A stretch of DNA of 64,000 bases from a virus. Its lineage: Duplodnaviria; Caudoviricetes. The notes beneath the pieces were generated by a model. The model worked only from the letters and a program-made list of their open reading frames with translations. It made no database searches and was not told where the DNA came from. A program made the position numbers and the translations under genes. Below are positions 4,459 to 31,780 of this stretch, in pieces. The stretch spans positions 1 through 64,000 of IMG/VR virus record IMGVR_UViG_3300032274_000001. One strand, given 5' to 3'. Every line of letters begins with the position of its first letter. Positions within the stretch are counted from its first letter, which is position 1.

Positions 4459-7400
4459 GTGGCGGTCGAGGCGTTTGGCGTCTCGCGGTTCAACTTCTTC
4501 TACGCCGCCCGAGACAACGAGGACATCGAGTACACCGCGCTCGGCTCTACGCTGTCGTCGGCGTTCACTGTCCCGGAGAAACGAGGCACGGCGACGCTGG
4601 TGTCCACGGCGGGGCTCCAGACCGGCGACATCATCCGGATCAAGGATGCCACCTACGACACCTACTGGGTGGTGGAGAAGGTCGTCAGCGGTACGCAGGT
4701 GGTCGTCAGGGCATTTCCTGGGCAGACGGTAGGGACGCAGCCGTGGCCGTGGGGCTCGGAGATCGGCACGGCGGGGAGCTCGGCATCGAACAAGGACGTG
4801 ACGCCGCAGCAGCCCATGTGGCTGTACATCGACCTGACGGAAGCCCCCGAGGGGGAGACATACGACTACCTGGTCTACGGGGCTGCGTCGGTGTCGTGCG
4901 ATACGGCCAACGAGGCATTCTACGTCGACTGCCGGGCAGCGGTCCCGGGCCCGGAGTCGTCGCCGTATGCGTCGAGCCTGACGAGCCCGACCCACGTCCG
5001 TCACCGTGCCGAGTACGAGTGCTTCAATGCCGACTTCGAGGACTGGTACCCGTGGAACACGGCATTCACCGTCACGCTCGAGGCGGGCAAGCGCTACGGC
5101 TTTGCTGTTGAGGTTGACCTGGAGGGCATCACCAACGGCACGAAGGTTCGGCTCCGGTCGCCACGGCTGGGTGCGATGCGGATTGACAAGGCTCACTCGC
5201 TATTCGTCGAGGCAGGCAGTGGGGCCTTGGATGCGAACGTGTTCACGACGACGAATACGTCGCTGCAGGATGCGCTGACGGCGAGTGTCCCCGACCCGGG
5301 CTCGGCCACGGATTTCCTACTGGTCGGCTGCGCCTTGATTGGGAACACGGATGGCACGTCTGCGAACCGTGAGGTGCTGATCAAGTTCGACCAGCTGGGC
5401 CACGACTTCGAGGCAATGATTGCCGGGGCGCAGACGAACGCGCACCCCACCTGGGCAAGCATCGGGGTGGTGTCGCTGGCTGCGGCTACGGGCTTCAAGC
5501 TGCAGATCGCTGCCAAGTCGGCAGGCACGGCCCGGACGGAATCGCCGTACTTGGCAGCCATTCCATTCGCGGCCATCTACGGGCACGCCGCCCACCAGAG
5601 CGCCGACGACACGGGAGATGCGACGGCGTCTACGACGGAGTGGGTGAGCATCGATAGCGAATCGCTGACCCCGGACGAGGCTGGCTTGCACACTGCTTTC
5701 GTGGCCGCGGACCTGCGCCACAACGGGACCACGGACCAGACCGCGTATGCAAGGCCCCGGTTCCCCACGGACCCCGTAGCGGTCCACGACGGACGCGCCG
5801 CGCCCCGAGGGCTGGTCGGCTACAACAAGAACAACGCCATCGCGAGCGCGCACCAGCTCTGCTTCTGGTTCCACCGTGCGCACCTGGATGCGGTGGCGCA
5901 GGCGTTCAAGATCGAGGGCCGAAAGCGGGACGGGTCCACGGGTGGCGTGCAGGTAGGCGACAAGTTCTACGCGACGGCGATTCGGGAGCGGGGCCAGTTC
6001 GAGCCACGGCGTGGCGACAAGTCGTCGGTGGTGGTCGAGGTTGAGATAGGCCAGACCTACGACAACTGGGACAACCCGTCGGGGGTCCAGTATTCGCGGA
6101 CCATGGAGGAGGGGACGAAGCTCGTCAACGCGGTATCCACCAACACCAACGGCTACACGAAGGTCGCCACCACCGGGGCCCTGACCACCGATACGTTCCA
6201 CTACGACGTGGCGACTCGGTTGCTGACCATCGAGATGGACTCCGGGGAGAGCCCGGCGAATGCCGATACGCACGTGCTGGTGCGACGGTTGGCGCTGGTG
6301 TCCCGAGATGGGCAGGTGCTCACGGATGGCGACGGCGAGGACTTGCCCTACGACGCTGGCCTCAAGCGGCACCCGCGACTGAGCCGAACCCTGCAGGTCA
6401 GGGATGGGGCGATCGAGGTGGCTAGTTCCTTCGGTACACTGGAGCTCCAGAACGCGGAGGGCACGTGGGACGAGCCGTTCGCGCACGAGATCCTGGAGTC
6501 GATGCGGGTGACGGTCCTGCGGGGGTACCCGGAGCACTCGTCGCTGAGGGCGGATCAAGAGGTGATCAACCACGGCATCGTGTCGGTGCCGGACTGGTCG
6601 CAGACGCTTCTTCGGGGCCGGGTCTACGATGCGTCTCGGCGGCTCAAGTGGCCGGTGGCCAAGACGTTCGTCCAGGTCTACCAGGGCACGACGCAGACGG
6701 GCTCTGCGGGGGGCTCGGACGGGCAGTTGATGCCGGTGATCTACGGGGCTGTGTTTCGGGTGCCCGCGTGGCGGACGACCAACGAGACGGGCGACTCGTC
6801 GGTGAACGACTACCAGTTCGCCGCCCACGCCTGTCACAAGATCGTTGCCGTCTACGAGGACGGGCAGACCCAAGACACCATGACGGTGTCCACGGACAAG
6901 AAATCCACGGGCAAGGTCGAGATCAACAACGACCAATTCGCCAGCCACGCCAGCCCCGACCCGGCCCCGGACGTGATCTACGTCGATGTCGTCGGGTACG
7001 AGGAGACGGTAGAGAGCGCGACGGGCGTCCCCATCGAGACCATCGGGAGGATCTCCCGCCACCTCCTGACCACGTTTGCCGGGTACCTAGAGGGTGCGTT
7101 GGACGACGATGCGCACCGCCGTATAGACCTGATCCGCAGGCGCATCGATAGCCTGCTCGACCCGCTAGAGCGGGCGCCATCGGTGGCGCTGTACGTGAGT
7201 GACTCCCGTAGTGTCGCTGAGTGCCTCTCTCAGCTGTCCGTCTCCGGGTGGGGGTTCTGGTATGAGTCGCGGGCCGGGCGGCTCTCTTGGGGCGCCCTGG
7301 AGCCCGAGGCGCAGGCAATCACGCGCAACGGGGGCCTGGAGTTCGATTCGGCAGAGGCATGGCCCTGGGAGGCAGCCGGGGCGGGCACGCTGGCGCTCAA

Positions 7401-22318: not shown

Positions 22319-23014
22319 TCAGAGCAGCGGAAGCTGCGGGTCTTGGGGGAGTGCTCCACGCTCGCGGAGTTCCATGCGCTTGAGCACTCCGTACCATCGG
22401 GAAGGCGGGGGCGGTGATCCACCGAGGCTGATCAAGCCGTGATCGTTTCGCAGGATAGCGATAGCCAGGGCCCGCCAAGAGGGCGCCAGGTTGCGCCTCT
22501 CAAGCTCCGGCGGCACCTCTTGGGGCATCCCCTCGGGGTACCCCCGAGACTCCCAAAGGCGAGCGTAGGCCCTCACGCGGGCATGTAGGCCCACGCCACC
22601 GAAGGTCTGGCCGTTCGGGGATGAGGCCTCTCCCGAGCTCAGTGAGAATCCCCGACTGGTGCTCCACTTGTGTAGGGCTCGGGCTGCTTCGGCGTTGGCT
22701 GCCCGCTGTTGATCGGGGCTCAGCAGGTGGAACCCGCCTCGGTACTTGGCGGGCACTCCGGTAGCGATGCACATGGAAGCTTGTCCGAGCCAGGCGATAC
22801 GGTTGGAGCTGGAGTTGGAGAGGAAGTGCTCGCACGAGACGGGCCACTTGGCGAGGACTTGCTGTAGAGCGGACTGAAACCGTGGCAGGTCTTGGAGGAA
22901 GTCGCAGTAGGCTTGCTTGGCCTCGTCGCTCGACATCCCCGCAGGGGGCGCCTCGGCGTACATGCCAGCGGGGACGCACTCCCACGCTGTCCAAGGGTGG
23001 TAGATTCGGGCCAT
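22319..23014 (-). CDS. IbrAB-associated protein with an IbrA C-terminal-like module
   Basis: RIYHPW..WE...GMY N-domain; C-terminal SWRALAIAILRNDH..LG matches IbrA SWKRFAITILKNDH..LG. Confidence 0.75.
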   Translation of the reverse strand: MARIYHPWTAWECVPAGMYAEAPPAGMSSDEAKQAYCDFLQDLPRFQSALQQVLAKWPVSCEHFLSNSSSNRIAWLGQASMCIATGVPAKYRGGFHLLSPDQQRAANAEAARALHKWSTSRGFSLSSGEASSPNGQTFGGVGLHARVRAYARLWESRGYPEGMPQEVPPELERRNLAPSWRALAIAILRNDHGLISLGGSPPPPSRWYGVLKRMELRERGALPQDPQLPLL

Positions 23015-23026
23015 GGTCAGGGCTGC

Positions 23027-23968
23027 CTAGCCGACTTCCTCGAACTGCTCGTCTTCCTCTGCGGCAGAAAGCTCTGCCTCCCAGGAGTCGGAAAAGTCGC
23101 TGTTCTCGAACAGGGCGGCGATGCCGGTGATCTGCTTCATGCGCAGGAGTTCATCTGCGCTCATGCCGATGTGACTGCAGATCCACCGGTCGCCCTTGCC
23201 CATCTCGACGAGCTCGGCAACGATCGCCGACATCAGCTCGATGTTATGAGAGCCCCGGGCCCGGTTGTGACGAATCGTGGACGCCATCCGGTCGCTCAGG
23301 TTCTTGTCGATGACCACGCAGGGCAAGCACCCGTTCTCCCGCTCCCGGATCTCAGCATTCTGCTTGAGGATGAGGAACCGGTGGAAGCCATCGACGACGA
23401 TGTACCGGTCGGACTCCTGGTCGTAGAATGTGACGACTGGTTGCGTGTAGCCGTCTGCTTCGATCGACACGCGCAGTAGCTCCATCTCGGGCGGCGCAAC
23501 GGCATTGGGGTTGTAGTCGTTGGCCTGGATCTTATCGATGGGAACGGGCCGCACGTCGTAGACGGGAGATCGGGTGGGCCGCTCCGGGGCCGGGTAGGAG
23601 CCGTTGTCGTCGTGGACTTCCCTGCCCGTGACGGGAGGGTTGAACACGGAGATAAGCGTCACGTCCGTCAGGGCTTGGAACGTGTGCGGGTCGTTCTCGT
23701 CCAGGACGTAAGTGTCGCCGGGGACGATGGTCCACTCGTCGCCTGTGGCCTCGCTACGCAGGATGCCCTTGCCGGCGATGCAATGGCAGGCCTCCTGGTG
23801 GTGCTTGTAGTGCCACCGCTGTGGAGCCCCCTGGGGAATCTCTGTGCGGTGCATGGAGAAGCCCAGGCCATCGGCGGCAAGCACGGGGCGGAAGCTGGTG
23901 AAGCCGCCCTGTGGGCACTGGACTTCGCGGTCGCTGCCCTCAAGCGAGGAGTGGCGTATCACTTTCAT
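23027..23968 (-). CDS. ibrB: EctC-type cupin fused to IbrB (ParB/Srx domain)
   Basis: aa 1-126: DGLGFSMH..HYKHHQEA..VFNPPVTGREVHD..GSYP; then SPVYDV..ANDYNPN.VAPPEM.LL..SI..DGYTQP..DGFHR. Confidence 0.9.
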   Translation of the reverse strand: MKVIRHSSLEGSDREVQCPQGGFTSFRPVLAADGLGFSMHRTEIPQGAPQRWHYKHHQEACHCIAGKGILRSEATGDEWTIVPGDTYVLDENDPHTFQALTDVTLISVFNPPVTGREVHDDNGSYPAPERPTRSPVYDVRPVPIDKIQANDYNPNAVAPPEMELLRVSIEADGYTQPVVTFYDQESDRYIVVDGFHRFLILKQNAEIRERENGCLPCVVIDKNLSDRMASTIRHNRARGSHNIELMSAIVAELVEMGKGDRWICSHIGMSADELLRMKQITGIAALFENSDFSDSWEAELSAAEEDEQFEEVG

Positions 23969-25292
23969 CGGCGGGCTTCTCCTTCTGCTGAATGGGTAGG
24001 TCTTTGTACTTGGCCATGATGGCCTTCTGTCGTGCCATCTGCTCCTGAGATGGGGCGAGTCCGAGGTACTTGCAGGTGTGGTCGTTCTTCAGAATCGTGA
24101 TGGCAAATCGCTTCCACGACGCCACCATGCCGGGGTTGGTCTTGAGCATGTCGCAATGGTCGGGGAAGCGTTGGATGCGAACGCGCCGCAGGGTCTTGTT
24201 GCCGTGAGAGGTGAGGCCGTTGAGCTTGAACGGGATGCCATGCTGCTCGAGCTGCTCGATGATCTCGTCGGGGAGTCCGCGGCCCAACCTTCCCCAGACC
24301 TTGAACGACTGGATGAACCGCCTACGAAAATTTGCCGCCACCCCCTCGGGGAGCGTGTCGAGTAGGAACTTGACGAACGACTTCCAGGTGTGGCCCTCGG
24401 GGAGTTTGAAGCTGCGGTAGCCGAGCTGCTTGCCGTAGGTGGCGACGAAGTTGGCGCCCTGGACGCGCGCGCAGAGCTTCGCCCACACGGGCGGGTCGAT
24501 CACGCGGTACAGGTTAAGGCTCGACTTCGACTCACTCATGAACGGCGAGGCAACGCGCATCTTCCCCAGCGGAACATTGGCTCGGTAGAAGATGTCGTAG
24601 AGGCGGTTGTACTCCCACTCGAATCGAGCGTTGGCGATCCAGACATCCTCGGTGCGCCAGTCGTAGACCGGGTACACGTTGAACACGTTGGGCCCGTTGC
24701 GCTTGGTCCACATCCGCCCGCCGAGGGTTTCCTTGCGGGGGTTCATGATGGCGCGGAAGCGGTTGAGGCTCTCAGCGGTCCTGATGCCAATGACACAGGC
24801 TGTGCGTTCGCCCTGTGAGTACCACTCGCCGAACTGGTCCCAGAAGTCCTCGTAGGACATGTCCTCCCGGAAGAAATCGAACGGGTGGTTGCCCATGTGG
24901 ACGATGTAGTCCTGCTCAGGAAGAGGACGGATCCAGCGCTCGCGATCAGACTCGCCCCAGCACTGCCACTCGACATCGTAGGCACTGACCGTGCACGGCA
25001 GAGTGATTGGCATGCAGCACCAGTAGACGTCGAGGAGGTCGAGGTTTTTGCCCAAAATGCTGTGCATGAACTGGAGGCTGATCTCGTAGTTCGCCTCGTT
25101 GTCCAGGATCATGACGCCGATCTTCTTGGTGATGCCATGCTTGCGCATGTAGTCGAGGAAGAGATTGAGAACGACGCCAGAGTCCTTGCCGCCGGAGAAC
25201 GAGACGTAAATCCGGGGGAAGTTCTCGAACAGCCAGCCGATGCGCTCCATGGCGGCGTCGTAGACGTTGAGGTCGGGGTTGTAGGCTCTCAT
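23940..25292 (-). CDS. ibrA: IbrA-like PAPS-reductase/PP-loop + DUF3440 protein
   Basis: SFSGGKDS PP-loop; GIRTAESLNRFRAI; YPVYDW..EDVW; MRVASPF. Confidence 0.9.
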   Translation of the reverse strand: MRAYNPDLNVYDAAMERIGWLFENFPRIYVSFSGGKDSGVVLNLFLDYMRKHGITKKIGVMILDNEANYEISLQFMHSILGKNLDLLDVYWCCMPITLPCTVSAYDVEWQCWGESDRERWIRPLPEQDYIVHMGNHPFDFFREDMSYEDFWDQFGEWYSQGERTACVIGIRTAESLNRFRAIMNPRKETLGGRMWTKRNGPNVFNVYPVYDWRTEDVWIANARFEWEYNRLYDIFYRANVPLGKMRVASPFMSESKSSLNLYRVIDPPVWAKLCARVQGANFVATYGKQLGYRSFKLPEGHTWKSFVKFLLDTLPEGVAANFRRRFIQSFKVWGRLGRGLPDEIIEQLEQHGIPFKLNGLTSHGNKTLRRVRIQRFPDHCDMLKTNPGMVASWKRFAITILKNDHTCKYLGLAPSQEQMARQKAIMAKYKDLPIQQKEKPADESDTPLLA

Positions 25293-25922: not shown

Positions 25923-26624
25923 TCATCGTGCTCTCGCGGATACGGTCTTGGTCGCGACGGCTTCGCAGCCGGGCCAGTTGAAGTCTTTCTTGGCGGCCTT
26001 GGCGGCCTGATTGATTGCCGTCTGATTCACCTGCAAGGCGTTCATTGGAACCTTGCCCTCGGAGACAGCCGTGACCAGGGCTTTCATGTCGGTGACTCGG
26101 CCCTTCCAGGTCGTACGGGTAGCCACCCCTTGGGGGCCCTTGGGGCGCTCCACAGCGGGCGCTACCGCAGGGGTAGACTCTGCCTCGGCGACCACCTCGG
26201 CGGCGCTCTCAGTGTCCCCTGAGGCTTCCAGGCGGGCTGCCTCGGCCTCTGCGGCTCGGAGTTGTTCCTTGCGGGCAGCCTCGGCGGCTTTGCGTTCCTC
26301 CTCGGCGATGCGGGCTTGCTCGGCTTCCTGCCAAGCGAGCATGGCGGACTTGAGGCCGGCTTCGGCTTGCTCGCCCTGTTCGCGCACCTGGGCCTTGAAG
26401 GCCCGGAGGTTGGCCGTGTGGGCGTTGGCTTCCTTGATGAGGGGGTCGAAGGCGGAGTCTACGCGCTTGAGCCACGGCTTCACGTCCTCGGTGAGGATAC
26501 GGCCGGCGTGCTCGTAGTCGTCGTGGGATTGGATCCCGGTGGCGCCCTCGGCGAGAGCCACCAAGTGGGTGGACTCCAGGGCGACGTCGGCGGGGGTGGA
26601 CTTGGCTTCGTGGGCGACGGTCAT
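25923..26624 (-). CDS. Gam/Gp157-like coiled-coil protein
   Basis: Long coiled coil; GVATRTTWKGRVTD..VP..L.VN..AI..PG C-terminus. Confidence 0.55.
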   Translation of the reverse strand: MTVAHEAKSTPADVALESTHLVALAEGATGIQSHDDYEHAGRILTEDVKPWLKRVDSAFDPLIKEANAHTANLRAFKAQVREQGEQAEAGLKSAMLAWQEAEQARIAEEERKAAEAARKEQLRAAEAEAARLEASGDTESAAEVVAEAESTPAVAPAVERPKGPQGVATRTTWKGRVTDMKALVTAVSEGKVPMNALQVNQTAINQAAKAAKKDFNWPGCEAVATKTVSARAR

Positions 26625-26637
26625 GCGGTTGGTCTCC

Positions 26638-26961
26638 TCAGTTTTTGCGACGACGCTTCTTCGGCTTGGCTGTCGTCGTAGGCGTTGCACTCGGTATCGG
26701 TGACGGCGTCACTTCGATGTACTTGTGCCCGGGGCAGATCCGCTCGCCCTTCACCTCTCGGCACTTCACATGGCTACCCAAGGCGATTATGTCTTGGTGA
26801 TGGGTCACGATGACCCCGTGAGCGTTCAGGATCGCCCGCTCTGCCACGTAGAGCCGGTAGGCTACTCCGCCCAGGGCGAGAGACAGCATGCCCATGCAGA
26901 GCCACACAGGGCCCCTGACGGGCCGACGCTTGGCGCGGTGCGGGTCTAGGAGGTCGGTCAT
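26638..26961 (-). CDS. Membrane protein
   Basis: One TM, PT-rich basic tail. Confidence 0.5.
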   Translation of the reverse strand: MTDLLDPHRAKRRPVRGPVWLCMGMLSLALGGVAYRLYVAERAILNAHGVIVTHHQDIIALGSHVKCREVKGERICPGHKYIEVTPSPIPSATPTTTAKPKKRRRKN

Positions 26962-27119
26962 TGGGGTAGCCCCATCTGCGCTTCGTAAAGGCGGGCCAGG
27001 AGGGCGCTGATCGCCTCCTGGTCGTCGTCGCCAAGAAGCGATTGGAGGCCATCGAGAACCATCATCAGTTCGGGAACACTGAGGTCGATGGTCACCTTGA
27101 TGTCGTCGAGGTCGGTCAC
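26958..27119 (-). CDS. Hypothetical protein
   Basis: GTG start with GAGGAG RBS, overlapping neighbours. Confidence 0.5.
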   Translation of the reverse strand: MTDLDDIKVTIDLSVPELMMVLDGLQSLLGDDDQEAISALLARLYEAQMGLPQ

Positions 27120-27778
27120 TTCAGTTCTCCTCTCCGGGCAGCCTCGTTGAGCAGCCAGAGGCATCCGTTGAAGGCACGCTTGTCTTGGGGGTTGTCGAAC
27201 GGGTGAGGGCGGAACGTGCCGTCTCGGCCGTGGCCGATGGCCGCCCGGGTCTCGACCTTCACCCCGAAGGCGAACTCGATGCCCAACTCGTAGCCGGCGG
27301 TCTGGAGCTCGGCGCCGGAGATCCAAGACGACTTCCAGTCCTGCACTCCGACCTTGCCGTAGGCGATCCCGATGGAGTCGGCCGTCCACCCGAACCCCGA
27401 TGGGTGCCAACCTCGGATCTCCAAGGCCATCTCCTGTGTCCCGTCTGGGTTCTCGATCCACAGCGGCTCGTACCCGACCAGCTCGCGCCACCCACGGTTG
27501 GCCTCAAGCTGGGGCTCGAACTCCGCAAGTACCTCGGGGTCGAGGTTGAGCTCGTCGAGTCTGCCCCGGATGTCGGCTTCGATGATCTCGTGGAGGATGG
27601 TCCCACGGTTGCGGTGCTCCTCGGTGAAGTCGGGCATCTCGTGTCGGCAGACCCGGTGCCAGGTGTTCACCACCGTCGTCGTGGGGAATAGCTTCTGTCC
27701 ATCGACGCGGTACTCGTGGTGGGTCTCGTCGAAAGTGAACGCTCGGGCCAAGAACTCTTCGCTGTACTTGAGGATCAT
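27116..27778 (-). CDS. PD-(D/E)xK exonuclease (RecE/Cas4-like)
   Basis: FDETHHEY..DG..PT.T; RGTILH..IE; GWTAD; QDWKS; LQTAGY. Confidence 0.8.
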   Translation of the reverse strand: MILKYSEEFLARAFTFDETHHEYRVDGQKLFPTTTVVNTWHRVCRHEMPDFTEEHRNRGTILHEIIEADIRGRLDELNLDPEVLAEFEPQLEANRGWRELVGYEPLWIENPDGTQEMALEIRGWHPSGFGWTADSIGIAYGKVGVQDWKSSWISGAELQTAGYELGIEFAFGVKVETRAAIGHGRDGTFRPHPFDNPQDKRAFNGCLWLLNEAARRGELK

Positions 27779-27999
27779 GGCTGGCCCAGTGCCTTGCGGT
27801 TGTTTTCGAGCCGCCGTTCCTCCATGGCCCCGTGCTGCTTGCAGTAGAGCCCATCTGGTCCGTGGCCGCGCTTGCGAGAGCACTGGCGAGAGTGCCACTG
27901 ACCCTCGGGGTAGACTTCCTCAATGCACTTGCGGCGATCCTCGGGGTATCCGTTCGGGTTGCCGCTCCACTCCCCGTACCTGCGACGCTCGGAGGTCAT
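27775..27999 (-). CDS. Small Cys/His protein
   Basis: C...QCSRK.GHG.DGLYCKQH. Confidence 0.6.
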   Translation of the reverse strand: MTSERRRYGEWSGNPNGYPEDRRKCIEEVYPEGQWHSRQCSRKRGHGPDGLYCKQHGAMEERRLENNRKALGQP

Positions 28000-28004
28000 G
28001 GGCC

Positions 28005-28922
28005 CTACCCGTCCGACCCTGGCTCGGGGAATTCCTCGTCCTCGGCACCGCTGACCGGCTCCCCGGCATCGAACACGAGGTCTTGGATCTCGATCAGGTT
28101 GAGGTACTTGCCTTTGCGCTGGAGGACCGCGACCACCTTCGCGTTGTTCTCGTGAGCGGTGCTGATCTGCTCAGGGAAGTTGTCGTCGAACCCCGAGGCC
28201 ATCATCCCGCCCTCGAACGTCACGACGGTGCGCGTGTACCCGGACCCATCGCCGCGCTTGCCCGGCTTGGTTTCGTACTTCTCCACCTTGAGCGTGAGGA
28301 GGCGCTTCTCGTTCTCCTTCCAGTCGGCGGGCGGACCTCCGGTGGAAGAGCTACCCCCACGCTTGCCGGAGCTCTTCGCGGTCTTGCCGCCAGAGGCAGA
28401 CCCCCCACCCTGGACGTGGCCCATCTCCTCGGCCGGGGTGGCGTTGAATCCCGCCAAGACCATGATCCAGGAGAAGCCCAGACGGGCAGCCTTGCCGGTC
28501 GCTCGAGTCGCAGCCATGGACCGCCGAGCGTTGGATGGCTGGTCTGCCCAGCACCGCGAGCCCTGCATGTCGTCTGCGCGCCCACATTCGGCCGATGCGC
28601 GGCCTACGATCTCTCCCGAGGCCATGTGCACCAACTCGACCGTCGCCTCGTAGGAGCCATCCTCGGAGTCCCGGAAGTTGGTCACCTCGCGGGGCATGAT
28701 GCCGATCATGGCCAGAAGGGAAGTCCACCCCTCGGCCTTCACGTGCCGGCCGTCGCCGATGGCCACGTACAGCTCGCGCTCTTCGATGATCGGGGCGAGC
28801 ACGTTGGCGATCTCCGTCGCCTGCCTGACGCGCTCCGCCGGGGCGATGCCGTCTCCGATCAGGGCAACGTCGGTTCCTACTCCATGGGGTGCCTGGGTGG
28901 GCACTACTTCAGTCTCTGCCAT
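28005..28922 (-). CDS. Putative single-strand annealing recombinase
   Basis: EGW..ASAEC..W..SMAATRATGKA.R..TPAEEM; adjacent to exonuclease. Confidence 0.55.
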   Translation of the reverse strand: MAETEVVPTQAPHGVGTDVALIGDGIAPAERVRQATEIANVLAPIIEERELYVAIGDGRHVKAEGWTSLLAMIGIMPREVTNFRDSEDGSYEATVELVHMASGEIVGRASAECGRADDMQGSRCWADQPSNARRSMAATRATGKAARLGFSWIMVLAGFNATPAEEMGHVQGGGSASGGKTAKSSGKRGGSSSTGGPPADWKENEKRLLTLKVEKYETKPGKRGDGSGYTRTVVTFEGGMMASGFDDNFPEQISTAHENNAKVVAVLQRKGKYLNLIEIQDLVFDAGEPVSGAEDEEFPEPGSDG

Positions 28923-28990
28923 TGTCGAGCCTCCTCCTATCGGGGGGTTGGGGCAGACGATACTGCCGTCTCTGTCCGGGCCAGGTTCGG

Positions 28991-29037
28991 GGTATACCAT
29001 GACAAACGAGCCGATGTAAACCCCCGGGCGAGTTTAT
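28991..29037 (-). promoter_or_regulatory. Leftward promoter plus operator GTAAAC-N10-GTTTAT at the second divergence point
   Basis: TTTACA-N18-(TGG)TATACC; TGTAAACCCCCG identical to 17715-17726. Confidence 0.55.
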
Positions 29038-30566: not shown

Positions 30567-30785
30567 ATGACCCAGCCCCTCTCACTCCAAGAAGCCAGGG
30601 GACAAATCACGCGACTCAAGAAAGCCGGTGACCGCTTGGCAAAGATCGTGCAGATCGGCGCAAACCTTGTCGGAGACGTGAGCCTCTCCGCGCCGTGCCA
30701 GCCCGTCATCGACTGGAACAAAGCAAAGAAACGCAAGATCCCACCTGTGAGGCACCTCGTCCCGAAGGTGTGGAGAGAGGAATGA
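30567..30785 (+). CDS. Hypothetical protein
   Basis: Coupled to the MTase start. Confidence 0.45.
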   Translation: MTQPLSLQEARGQITRLKKAGDRLAKIVQIGANLVGDVSLSAPCQPVIDWNKAKKRKIPPVRHLVPKVWREE

Positions 30786-31780
30786 AATTCGGCTCGCTCT
30801 TCTCTGGAATCGGAGGCATCGACCTGGGCCTCGAACGCGCTGGAATGCAATGCGCCTGGCAAGTGGAGCAAGATGAGTTCTGCCAACGAATCCTCGCCAA
30901 ACACTGGCCAGATGTCCCTCGATTCGGAGATGTTCGGGATGTCACCAGCGCCGAGCCCGTCGACCTCCTCGCCGGTGGTTTCCCCTGTCAGCCCTTCAGC
31001 GTCGCAGGCAACCAGCAAGGGACCGACGACGATCGGCACCTGTGGCCCGAGTTCGCACGGCTGGTGCGTACTCTACGACCCCGTTGGGTGCTCGCTGAGA
31101 ACGTCCCTGGCCTCCGAACTATCGCAGCTGACGAAGTGCTCAGCGATTTGGAGGCAGCAGACTACACCGCATGGCCGCTCGTGGTGGGTGCTCGCCATGT
31201 CGGAGCCCCTCACCGGAGAGACCGAGTTTGGATCGTGGCCCACGCCCAAGGCGGTGGACGGGAGAAGCAAAGGGAATGGGGGGGCTCGCAAATCACCCAG
31301 CCTCGACCAGATCGCAAGAGAGGGATCGTGGCCCACGCCAACAGCCACGGAGTACGGGAGCAACCAGTCCCCATCCGAGGGGGCTGCGATTCGTCCGAGC
31401 TTGGCGGGCTTGGTGTCGGCCAGGCCGACACCAACAGCGGCAGATGCGAACAGCAGCGGCTCGGCGGGGTACTCAACGGAAAGCGGGAGATCCGCAGGGG
31501 TGACGCTCACGGACGCGACGGTGAGGGGGTGGGCGACGCCCAACCAAACCAACCGGAAGTCCCCAGACCTCGAGACCACCGTTGGCCAGCCGGACCCGGC
31601 CAACCCCAACACGAATGGGAAGAGCCGCGCACGGTTGAATCACCGGTGGGTGTGTCAGCTCCAGGGCTTCCCCGCAGACTGGCTCGACATCGAAGACAAT
31701 CCCTGAAGGCTCTCGGCAATGCGTGTGTGCCTCAGGTGGTAGAACAGATCGGGAGGGCGATCATGGAACTGGGTGTCTGA
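30782..31780 (+). CDS. C5-cytosine DNA methyltransferase (alpha chain: motifs I-VIII and X)
   Basis: SLFSGIGG, GGFPCQPFS, ENVPG, HRRDRVWI, LKALGNACVPQ. Confidence 0.95.
   Translation: MKFGSLFSGIGGIDLGLERAGMQCAWQVEQDEFCQRILAKHWPDVPRFGDVRDVTSAEPVDLLAGGFPCQPFSVAGNQQGTDDDRHLWPEFARLVRTLRPRWVLAENVPGLRTIAADEVLSDLEAADYTAWPLVVGARHVGAPHRRDRVWIVAHAQGGGREKQREWGGSQITQPRPDRKRGIVAHANSHGVREQPVPIRGGCDSSELGGLGVGQADTNSGRCEQQRLGGVLNGKREIRRGDAHGRDGEGVGDAQPNQPEVPRPRDHRWPAGPGQPQHEWEEPRTVESPVGVSAPGLPRRLARHRRQSLKALGNACVPQVVEQIGRAIMELGV
30873..31706 (+). CDS. Nested +1-frame ORF: putative MTase beta chain (WPTP repeats + motif IX)
   Basis: Four (W)PTP repeats and RLNHRWVCQLQGFPADW; alternative start ATG 31197. Confidence 0.7.
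   Translation: MSSANESSPNTGQMSLDSEMFGMSPAPSPSTSSPVVSPVSPSASQATSKGPTTIGTCGPSSHGWCVLYDPVGCSLRTSLASELSQLTKCSAIWRQQTTPHGRSWWVLAMSEPLTGETEFGSWPTPKAVDGRSKGNGGARKSPSLDQIAREGSWPTPTATEYGSNQSPSEGAAIRPSLAGLVSARPTPTAADANSSGSAGYSTESGRSAGVTLTDATVRGWATPNQTNRKSPDLETTVGQPDPANPNTNGKSRARLNHRWVCQLQGFPADWLDIEDNP

Follow-up and report, generated by a model that had tools for sequence, protein, structure and literature searches.

Gene pairs in which a protein with PAPS_reduct and DUF3440 domains stands beside a ParB-like protein are exemplified by IbrA and IbrB of Escherichia coli ECOR-9, by YbdN and YbdM of E. coli K-12, and by phage pairs assigned to PHROG 2302 and PHROG 2159, such as that of Streptococcus phage CHPC877. 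Such a pair is also carried by the stretch of DNA analysed here (the window), 64,000 nucleotides (nt) of the 72,938-bp, 84% complete IMG/VR virus record IMGVR_UViG_3300032274_000001, in which the IbrB partner is joined, in one open reading frame (ORF) of 313 amino acids (aa), to a cupin of the ectoine synthase (EctC) type. The pairs of the ECOR-9, K-12 and CHPC877 type have no EctC, nor the two further proteins of the window system that are termed P4 and P5 below; their IbrA proteins are only 27-44% identical to that of the window and lack four EctC-linked cysteines, while the IbrB part is 56-70% identical even to pairs without EctC. All that has been described of the K-12 pair is that it forms an operon under repression by YbdO (PMC9068703), and a literature search returned no paper on an EctC::IbrB fusion, on DUF3440 biochemistry, on the mechanism of IbrAB or on an IbrAB form bearing EctC, P4 and P5. 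A ParB/Srx protein combined with a PP-loop enzyme of the PAPS reductase family is likewise found in DndB/DndC phosphorothioation and with BrxP of type-4 BREX. The roles of DndB and DndC, and those of the ParB/Srx proteins DndB and DpdB, have been summarised (PMC12839542). The window system differs from Dnd in that its scores fall far below the family cut-offs, a cupin, P4 and P5 are present instead, and no DndA, DndD or DndE was seen among the ORFs examined.

Ectoine synthase itself cyclises N-gamma-acetyl-L-2,4-diaminobutyrate to ectoine: with the help of the metal, the alpha-amino group attacks an amide carbonyl, and a cyclic amidine is formed. Its Trp-21, which positions substrate and product, is present in every one of 437 cluster-encoded EctCs, and an Ala mutant keeps only 9.7% of the activity (PMC6344544). 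Solitary EctCs (that of Pseudomonas syringae, and groups 1-3 of Czech et al. 2018) resemble the window cupin in being EctC-type proteins without ectAB, and a Cys at position 61 is common to some orphan-type sequences and the window cupin. Unlike the window cupin, they keep the Trp (PMC6344544) and fall outside the IbrAB-linked clade described below; in the 145 orphan EctC-type proteins the Trp is sometimes shifted by two residues (PMC5924519, PMC6344544). The closest relatives of the whole protein in named phages are the gp104 proteins of Mycobacterium phages Gaia and Nebkiss, which share its two-domain architecture with 62% identity over residues 1-299. Their hosts are unrelated to that of the window's virus, and the proteins are without experimental study in the literature searched. 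In GenBank, Gaia gp104 is named 'ectoine synthase/ParB multidomain protein', and the PAPS reductase (IbrA) gene gp103 lies upstream of it and overlaps it, as in the window. The initial annotation had implied more novelty for the fusion than it has, as it has been annotated in GenBank since the 2014 record of phage Gaia. What is new here is a supported Phe-type EctC clade, the alternation of fused, split and reordered forms, and a five-part module with a chain of fusions.

The fusion gene occupies positions 23027-23968 on the minus strand and is read through its 313 codons without interruption. The EctC-type cupin corresponds to residues 1-130 (23579-23968, minus strand), as delimited by the PF06339 profile, alignment with 5bxx and 5onn, an AlphaFold2 (AF2) model and Foldseek. 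Ectoine_synth (PF06339) covers residues 1-127 (profile positions 1-125 of 127) with 132.8 bits against a Pfam cut-off of 27 (E = 1.1e-38), and the protein also scores above the cut-off of the NCBIfam 'ectoine synthase' model PRK13290 (135.1 bits, cut-off 128). With phmmer, residues 9-136 aligned to residues 9-134 of S. alaskensis EctC (5bxx) with a 2-residue offset; the cupin is 39-41% identical to that enzyme, with a root-mean-square deviation (rmsd) of 1.0-1.5 Å in Foldseek. In the AF2 model, built with 31 homologues, the predicted local distance difference test (pLDDT) value of the cupin is about 90 or more, and the domain superposes on 5bxx_B with a TMt of 0.97 and an rmsd of 1.0 Å. A short linker (residues ~131-137; 23558-23578, minus strand) leads into the SPVY motif that opens the IbrB part. 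Residues 131-136 are modelled with a pLDDT below 50, and S134, P135 and Y137 are invariant across the 31 fused homologues. The initial annotation had placed an EctC-type domain at residues 1-126, equated E59, Y87 and H95 with the iron ligands E57, Y85 and H93 of EctC, read the pocket Trp as Phe, and joined the cupin to IbrB. All of this was confirmed, by the profile coverage and the model, by the offset of the 5bxx alignment, by 'gFtSfR' standing opposite 'gWaSaR' of 5bxx, and by a single ORF whose C-terminal half matches phrog_2159 'ParB-like' (E = 1.2e-79).

The window cupin and the structurally characterized EctCs (S. alaskensis, 5bxx/5by5; P. lautus, 5onm-5ono) have the fold and the Glu/Tyr/His iron site in common, and EctC residues Ser-23, Arg-25, Thr-40, Tyr-52 and Phe-106 are kept along with the C-terminal lid motif. 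It is unlike them in the replacement of Trp-21 by Phe and of Val-59 by Cys (C61), in an extra cysteine, C18, and in having no ectAB, being fused to IbrB and belonging to a separate clade. With pocket residues mapped from the P. lautus naming in PMC6344544, the predicted metal ligands are E59, Y87 and H95 and the predicted substrate/product contacts are F23 (the Trp-21 position), S25, R27, H40, T42, Y54 and F109. H40 replaces Asn-38 of P. lautus EctC, a position that is likewise His in S. alaskensis EctC, and Cys-104 of the P. lautus enzyme is Ser in the window protein. Alignment columns were tallied over 120 fused and 120 stand-alone relatives and compared with 57 other EctC representatives. 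E59, Y87, H95, S25, R27, T42, Y54 and F109 were invariant in all 240 relatives, as were the lid residues P111, E117 and H119 of the motif FNPP..G.E.H. Phe was found at the Trp-21 position in 235/240, C61 and C63 in 240/240, and C18 in 215/240, whereas the 57 other representatives mostly had Trp at column 23 and Val at column 61. C61 and C63 lie on the same strand as E59, at positions i+2 and i+4 from it, and we infer that their side chains should face the barrel interior. Since all iron ligands and nearly all substrate contacts are kept, together with a clade-specific Phe and invariant cysteines, the cupin appears to be under selection as an enzyme.

A maximum likelihood tree (118 rows, 141 columns, quick search) leaves many forks open with so few columns, and all IbrAB-linked EctCs fall on one side of a branch with a Shimodaira-Hasegawa-like approximate likelihood ratio test (SH-aLRT) value of 99. 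By this measure the IbrAB-linked EctCs form a clade separate from the ectABC-linked synthases. The distribution of the fused state within the clade requires at least five changes, two of them forced by well-supported branches, which suggests repeated fusion or fission. The window protein itself clusters with P0002, P0121 and P0241 and does not belong to the main fused subclade.

The remainder of the fusion protein (residues ~138-313; 23030-23557, minus strand) consists of an IbrB-type ParB/Srx N-domain followed by a helical C-terminal part resembling a helix-turn-helix (HTH). Pfam ParB_N reached only 20.8 bits on this half, below its cut-off of 26.3. The sole sequence relative in the PDB is SbnI (5uje), a weak match of about 60 residues (E = 0.002) that is accompanied by a match to NCBIfam staphy_B_SbnI, while Foldseek returned KorB (8qa9) and Noc (7nfu) as structural neighbours. 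Motifs NDYNPN-VAPPEM, DGYTQP, DGFHR (193-197) and STIRHNRARG-H are invariant among the 31 homologues. The stretch D193-G194-F195-H196-R197, identical in 31/31, would fit a nucleotide-binding motif of the DGxxR type, which we take to be the signature of the ParB/Srx superfamily (GxxR in ParB, GCHR in Srx, DGQHR in DndB). Domains of this superfamily bind a nucleoside triphosphate (NTP) and serve either to clamp DNA or to transfer phosphate.

The IbrA gene (23940-25292, minus strand; PF11922, E = 2.9e-57; PF01507, E = 9e-9; phrog_2302, E = 7.6e-105) lies upstream of the fusion gene and overlaps it by 29 nt. Here, as in nearly all related loci, the ParB-like gene and the adjoining PAPS_reduct/DUF3440 gene lie in one operon and constitute an IbrAB pair. 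The PP-loop of IbrA (SFSGGKDS, residues 31-38) is intact, and SGGKDS is conserved over 70 IbrA homologues. In the same set, EctC-linked IbrA proteins keep C92, C100, C111 and C274 to 95% or more, which EctC-less ones do not, whereas C93 and C407 are conserved in both forms alike. The extra cysteines could constitute a metal or iron-sulfur site, or a sulfur relay, peculiar to the EctC-linked subfamily. PP-loop enzymes such as DndC, TilS and QueC adenylate a carbonyl, carboxylate or phosphate ahead of attack by a sulfur or nitrogen nucleophile.

Starting 12 nt past the stop codon of the fusion gene is a third gene, ORF3 (22319-23014, minus strand; 231 aa), which the tblastn coverage profile and the arrangements of related loci identified as a fusion of P4 (residues 1 to ~125) and P5 (residues ~140-200). 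In Gaia (L042), by comparison, the P4-like and P5-like proteins have a small gene each, downstream of the fusion gene and after an extra gene. ORF3 had no Pfam match. P4 (modelled as residues 1-130) is predicted by AF2 as six helices with a pLDDT of 95.2 and a predicted template modelling score (pTM) of 0.88, and carries the conserved motif W-E...W-x-S-C-E...N-R-x-A-W-x-G-x-A. Comparison of this fold with the PDB gave no convincing match: the best Foldseek E was 1.5, and the best VIA-align Z over 48,161 chains was 4.4, a value within the chance range for helical proteins that does not in itself prove the fold to be new. A search of the ESM Atlas with ORF3 gave nothing of use, with scores no higher than 0.88 and TM no higher than 0.34. 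P5 repeats the C-terminal motif of the IbrA DUF3440 domain, SW..AI.IL.NDH (BLASTP against IbrA, E = 4e-5), and a PF11922 match is recorded for one fused P4::P5 homologue.

A scan of IMG/VR that used an alignment of the fused proteins as its query yielded 587 relatives, and gene arrangements were counted in the 80 best loci. An EctC module was present in 71 of these, and the comparison of fused with adjacent cases that the initial annotation had proposed gave 37 in-frame fusions, 28 loci with adjacent separate genes, and 6 in which the genes were separated or reordered; IbrAB occurred without EctC in the remaining 9. The five stand-alone EctCs P0123, P0210, P0197, P0241 and P0245 (50-65% identity) are all encoded between IbrA and IbrB genes. 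P4 and P5, in most loci two successive small genes, accompanied EctC in every locus with enough flanking sequence except two (L052 and L064), and 8 of the 9 loci without EctC lacked them. The gene order varied: IbrA-EctC-IbrB-P4-P5 (with EctC and IbrB fused or separate), P4-P5-IbrA-EctC-IbrB, EctC::IbrB-P4-P5-IbrA, IbrA-EctC-P4-P5-IbrB and IbrB-P4-P5-IbrA-EctC were all observed. Identity to the window IbrA was 62-75% where EctC was present and 27-44% where it was not, while IbrB identity was 56-78% over all loci, EctC present or not. Because EctC stays with IbrAB in 71 of the 80 related viral loci, whether the genes are fused, split or reordered, the association is supported as functional and not accidental. 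The split cassette L009 (ENA contig_42284) is a single case in which a 227-aa 1-Cys peroxiredoxin (AhpC-TSA + 1-cysPrx_C; 4459-5142) is encoded between the EctC-type and IbrB genes.

The architecture is also found outside these loci. In a collection of 5.8 billion proteins at least 120 protein clusters (61-69% identity, ~300 aa) all have Ectoine_synth recorded, most of them with ParB_N as well. A tblastn search of 50,697 phage records found the full-length architecture in Gaia and Nebkiss (62% identity); about 220 other phage records with an IbrB homologue matched from residue ~133 onward only, and in Pseudoalteromonas phage XCL1123 the EctC and IbrB parts are two adjacent ORFs. In GTDB (one genome per species) the EctC part was found in only 3 of the 80 best IbrB loci, in metagenome-assembled genomes of Bacteroidota, Gallionella and Planctomycetota. 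Other EctC architectures were noted among P0300, P0284 and P0243/P0247, namely EctC with a PhyH-type (EctD-like) dioxygenase (425 aa), EctC with a formyltransferase domain (381 aa), and tandem double-EctC proteins (250-280 aa).

Further fusions join the other members of the cassette. P4::P5 fusions occur in about 35 further clusters and in L174, and in P0488 IbrB (residues 39-214) is fused to P4 (residues 233-352). EctC::IbrB, IbrB::P4 and P4::P5 thus form a chain, of which the window holds the first and third links, so that its five-part module is encoded by three genes. On sequence evidence the 313-aa protein unites two subunits of a phage early-gene IbrA/EctC/IbrB/P4/P5 cassette, encoded here by three overlapping or abutting genes. 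Since the five modules are inherited jointly through fusion, fission and permutation of gene order, it is most likely that they work together in a single physical complex, for which the three fusions and the P5-like tail of IbrA are the strongest evidence. The cupin, the PP-loop of IbrA and the DGFHR motif of IbrB are all strongly constrained.

The virus record includes genes for a portal, a terminase, a DnaB-type helicase, an exonuclease and a transglycosylase. The IbrA, EctC::IbrB and P4::P5 genes form the end of a leftward block holding exonuclease/recombination genes (25923-29000), with two exonuclease-type genes at 25923-26690 and 27116-27898 and a phrog_19042 gene at 28005-29000. An ORF of 361 aa (30695-31780) lies on the opposite (plus) strand directly past this early block.

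The reading that we prefer, with a probability of roughly 0.5 and largely by analogy, is that the cassette encodes an IbrAB modification complex directed at DNA or a nucleotide, with the cupin as the catalytic subunit that would process an amino-acid-like moiety. This moiety would be small and other than the N-gamma-acetyl-diaminobutyrate (N-gamma-acetyl-DABA) made by EctAB, and the reaction of the cupin would be a metal-assisted cyclocondensation like that of EctC, or amidine hydrolysis in the reverse direction. IbrA, as a PP-loop enzyme, would activate a carbonyl or phosphate through adenylation, and IbrB, with its NTP-binding ParB/Srx domain and HTH-like helices, would carry the complex to DNA or add a phosphotransfer step. 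The net product would be modified phage or host DNA, or a modified nucleotide, formed early in infection together with the action of the recombination genes of the same operon. A narrower and rather doubtful version of this scheme is a phage DNA or nucleotide hypermodification machine, in which a base carbonyl or backbone phosphate would be adenylated by the PP-loop enzyme, an amino-acid-like amine attached, and a cyclic amidine on this substituent closed or opened by the cupin.

Several observations weigh against a modification complex. The DndC model TIGR03183 scored IbrA at 25.7 bits against a cut-off of 290.4, and PADLOC gave only weak partial DndC and BrxP matches to IbrA and no model matching the fusion protein/IbrB or ORF3. 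The AF2 model of the whole fusion has a pTM of 0.45, with the two domains unplaced relative to each other and no defined interface; this inter-domain geometry is untrustworthy, and nothing is concluded from it about channelling from one active site to the other. EctC has as its active site a deep, lidded tunnel made for a small molecule in free form (PMC6344544), a poor fit with a DNA-tethered substrate. The literature searched contained no biochemical or genetic data for any IbrAB system. IbrAB is moreover reported to activate the prophage eib genes of E. coli ECOR-9 (Sandt et al. 2002, a reference listed in PMC10434257), and to have been named for this activity; this is the only phenotype known to us, and it fits a regulator as well.

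A regulatory role would make the cupin a ligand-sensing or dimerising module that controls DNA binding by IbrB and thereby the transcription of phage or prophage genes. The HTH-like helices that end the IbrB part and its likeness to KorB and Noc agree with this, cupin-HTH regulators do exist (1y9q appeared in the same Foldseek list), and the EctCs of solved structure are constitutive head-to-tail dimers (PMC5924519). We nevertheless consider it rather unlikely. The three metal ligands, five substrate/product contacts and the lid motif that are invariant in the 240 relatives exceed what a sensor would need, about 40% of the cassettes encode the cupin as a protein of its own, and the intact PP-loop of IbrA indicates chemistry.

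Another unlikely explanation, which we place on a level with the regulatory one, is that the cassette synthesises or breaks down a small molecule in free form and does not modify DNA. The molecule might be a nucleotide- or amino-acid-derived signal, a host defence could for instance be countered in this way, and IbrB would be a kinase of the SbnI/Srx type and not a DNA binder. SbnI, a free-serine kinase with the ParB/Srx fold, is the sole PDB sequence relative of the IbrB part, and the EctC pocket fits a small free molecule (PMC6344544). The peroxiredoxin gene between EctC and IbrB in L009 also recalls the sulfiredoxin-peroxiredoxin pair, sulfiredoxin being a ParB/Srx-fold enzyme that repairs peroxiredoxins. 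The SbnI matches are weak and span only about 60 residues, however, the HTH-like helices and the KorB/Noc likeness point to DNA binding, and the cassette has neither a PADLOC match nor a known anti-defence family.

It is quite improbable that the cupin gene is an auxiliary metabolic gene for a true ectoine synthase, by which the phage would complete or boost ectoine synthesis of the host, or salvage N-acetyl-DABA, so that the infected cell stays osmotically fit, and that the fusion to IbrB is only incidental. Its score above the NCBIfam ectoine synthase cut-off, its identity and close superposition to S. alaskensis EctC and the retention of the iron ligands and most pocket residues would suit such an enzyme, and the solitary P. 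syringae EctC yielded ectoine in a heterologous host (PMC5924519). Two marks of a bona fide ectoine synthase are nonetheless missing: the conserved Trp-21 is Phe, here and in nearly all of its relatives, and in place of ectA or ectB the neighbours are IbrA and P4::P5. The absence of ectA and ectB from the window, stated in the initial annotation, holds for the whole 72,938-bp record (84% complete), in which neither EctA (TIGR02406) nor a class-III aminotransferase (PF00202) was matched anywhere. The gene is furthermore always embedded in IbrA/IbrB/P4/P5, its clade is separate, and some of the phages that carry it, Mycobacterium phage Gaia for one, infect non-halophiles. Finally, although the adjacent and often overlapping genes of 28 of the 71 loci could be merged by a single-base error, it is very improbable indeed that the fusion arose in assembly or sequencing, through the loss of a stop codon or a frameshift between neighbouring genes, because the identical 313-aa protein is on record from 3 contigs and the in-frame fusion with its conserved linker recurs in 37 IMG/VR loci, in the protein clusters described above and in the isolates Gaia and Nebkiss.

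The initial annotation had further proposed that the fusion offers a functional context for solitary EctC-type proteins. This stands for the phage-borne, Phe-type, IbrAB-linked clade and not for the classical bacterial orphans, of which one was checked. That protein, P0313, which has a shifted Trp (L172; GCA_033977145.1, JAVIJF010000007.1), falls outside the IbrAB-linked clade in the tree, and no IbrAB was found in its 292-kb contig. Its gene adjoins a divergent LysR regulator gene, and in the vicinity are genes for a DHDPS-like protein, D-amino-acid oxidase, proline racemase and an ABC transporter of the branched-chain type, surroundings that resemble those of hydroxyproline or cyclic-amino-acid catabolism and give a lead of their own on the solitary EctCs. 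Given the SH-aLRT of 99 for the clade, the position of P0313 outside it without IbrAB, and the three EctC-bearing loci among the 80 from GTDB, the context is limited to phage-borne Phe-type EctCs. In Mycobacterium abscessus prophages, a 'cysteine dioxygenase-like' (cupin) protein has been noted near a PAPS-reductase-like protein (PMC8092301), and the most basal EctC group ('group 1') of the 2018 phylogeny consists of M. abscessus proteins only (PMC5924519). Both may be prophage copies of the cassette; no M. abscessus locus was among the 80 GTDB genome loci returned.

The conserved and slightly altered EctC pocket provides a chemical handle, in the form of an amino-acid-like substrate and amidine chemistry, and the fusion chain provides a subunit map of the IbrAB system. 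The Phe-type EctC clade appears as a fixed subunit of IbrAB, a very widespread phage and prophage pair of unsolved biochemistry, and viral 'ectoine synthase' genes are easily mistaken for osmolyte auxiliary metabolic genes. The question of the solitary EctCs is thereby narrowed, the Phe-type IbrAB-linked proteins being accounted for and the classical orphan that was checked lying outside. Phage Gaia on M. smegmatis offers a cultivable model for the cassette. If hypermodification were true, the cassette would yield a new type of modified nucleoside, and the EctC clade would have its first non-osmolyte function.

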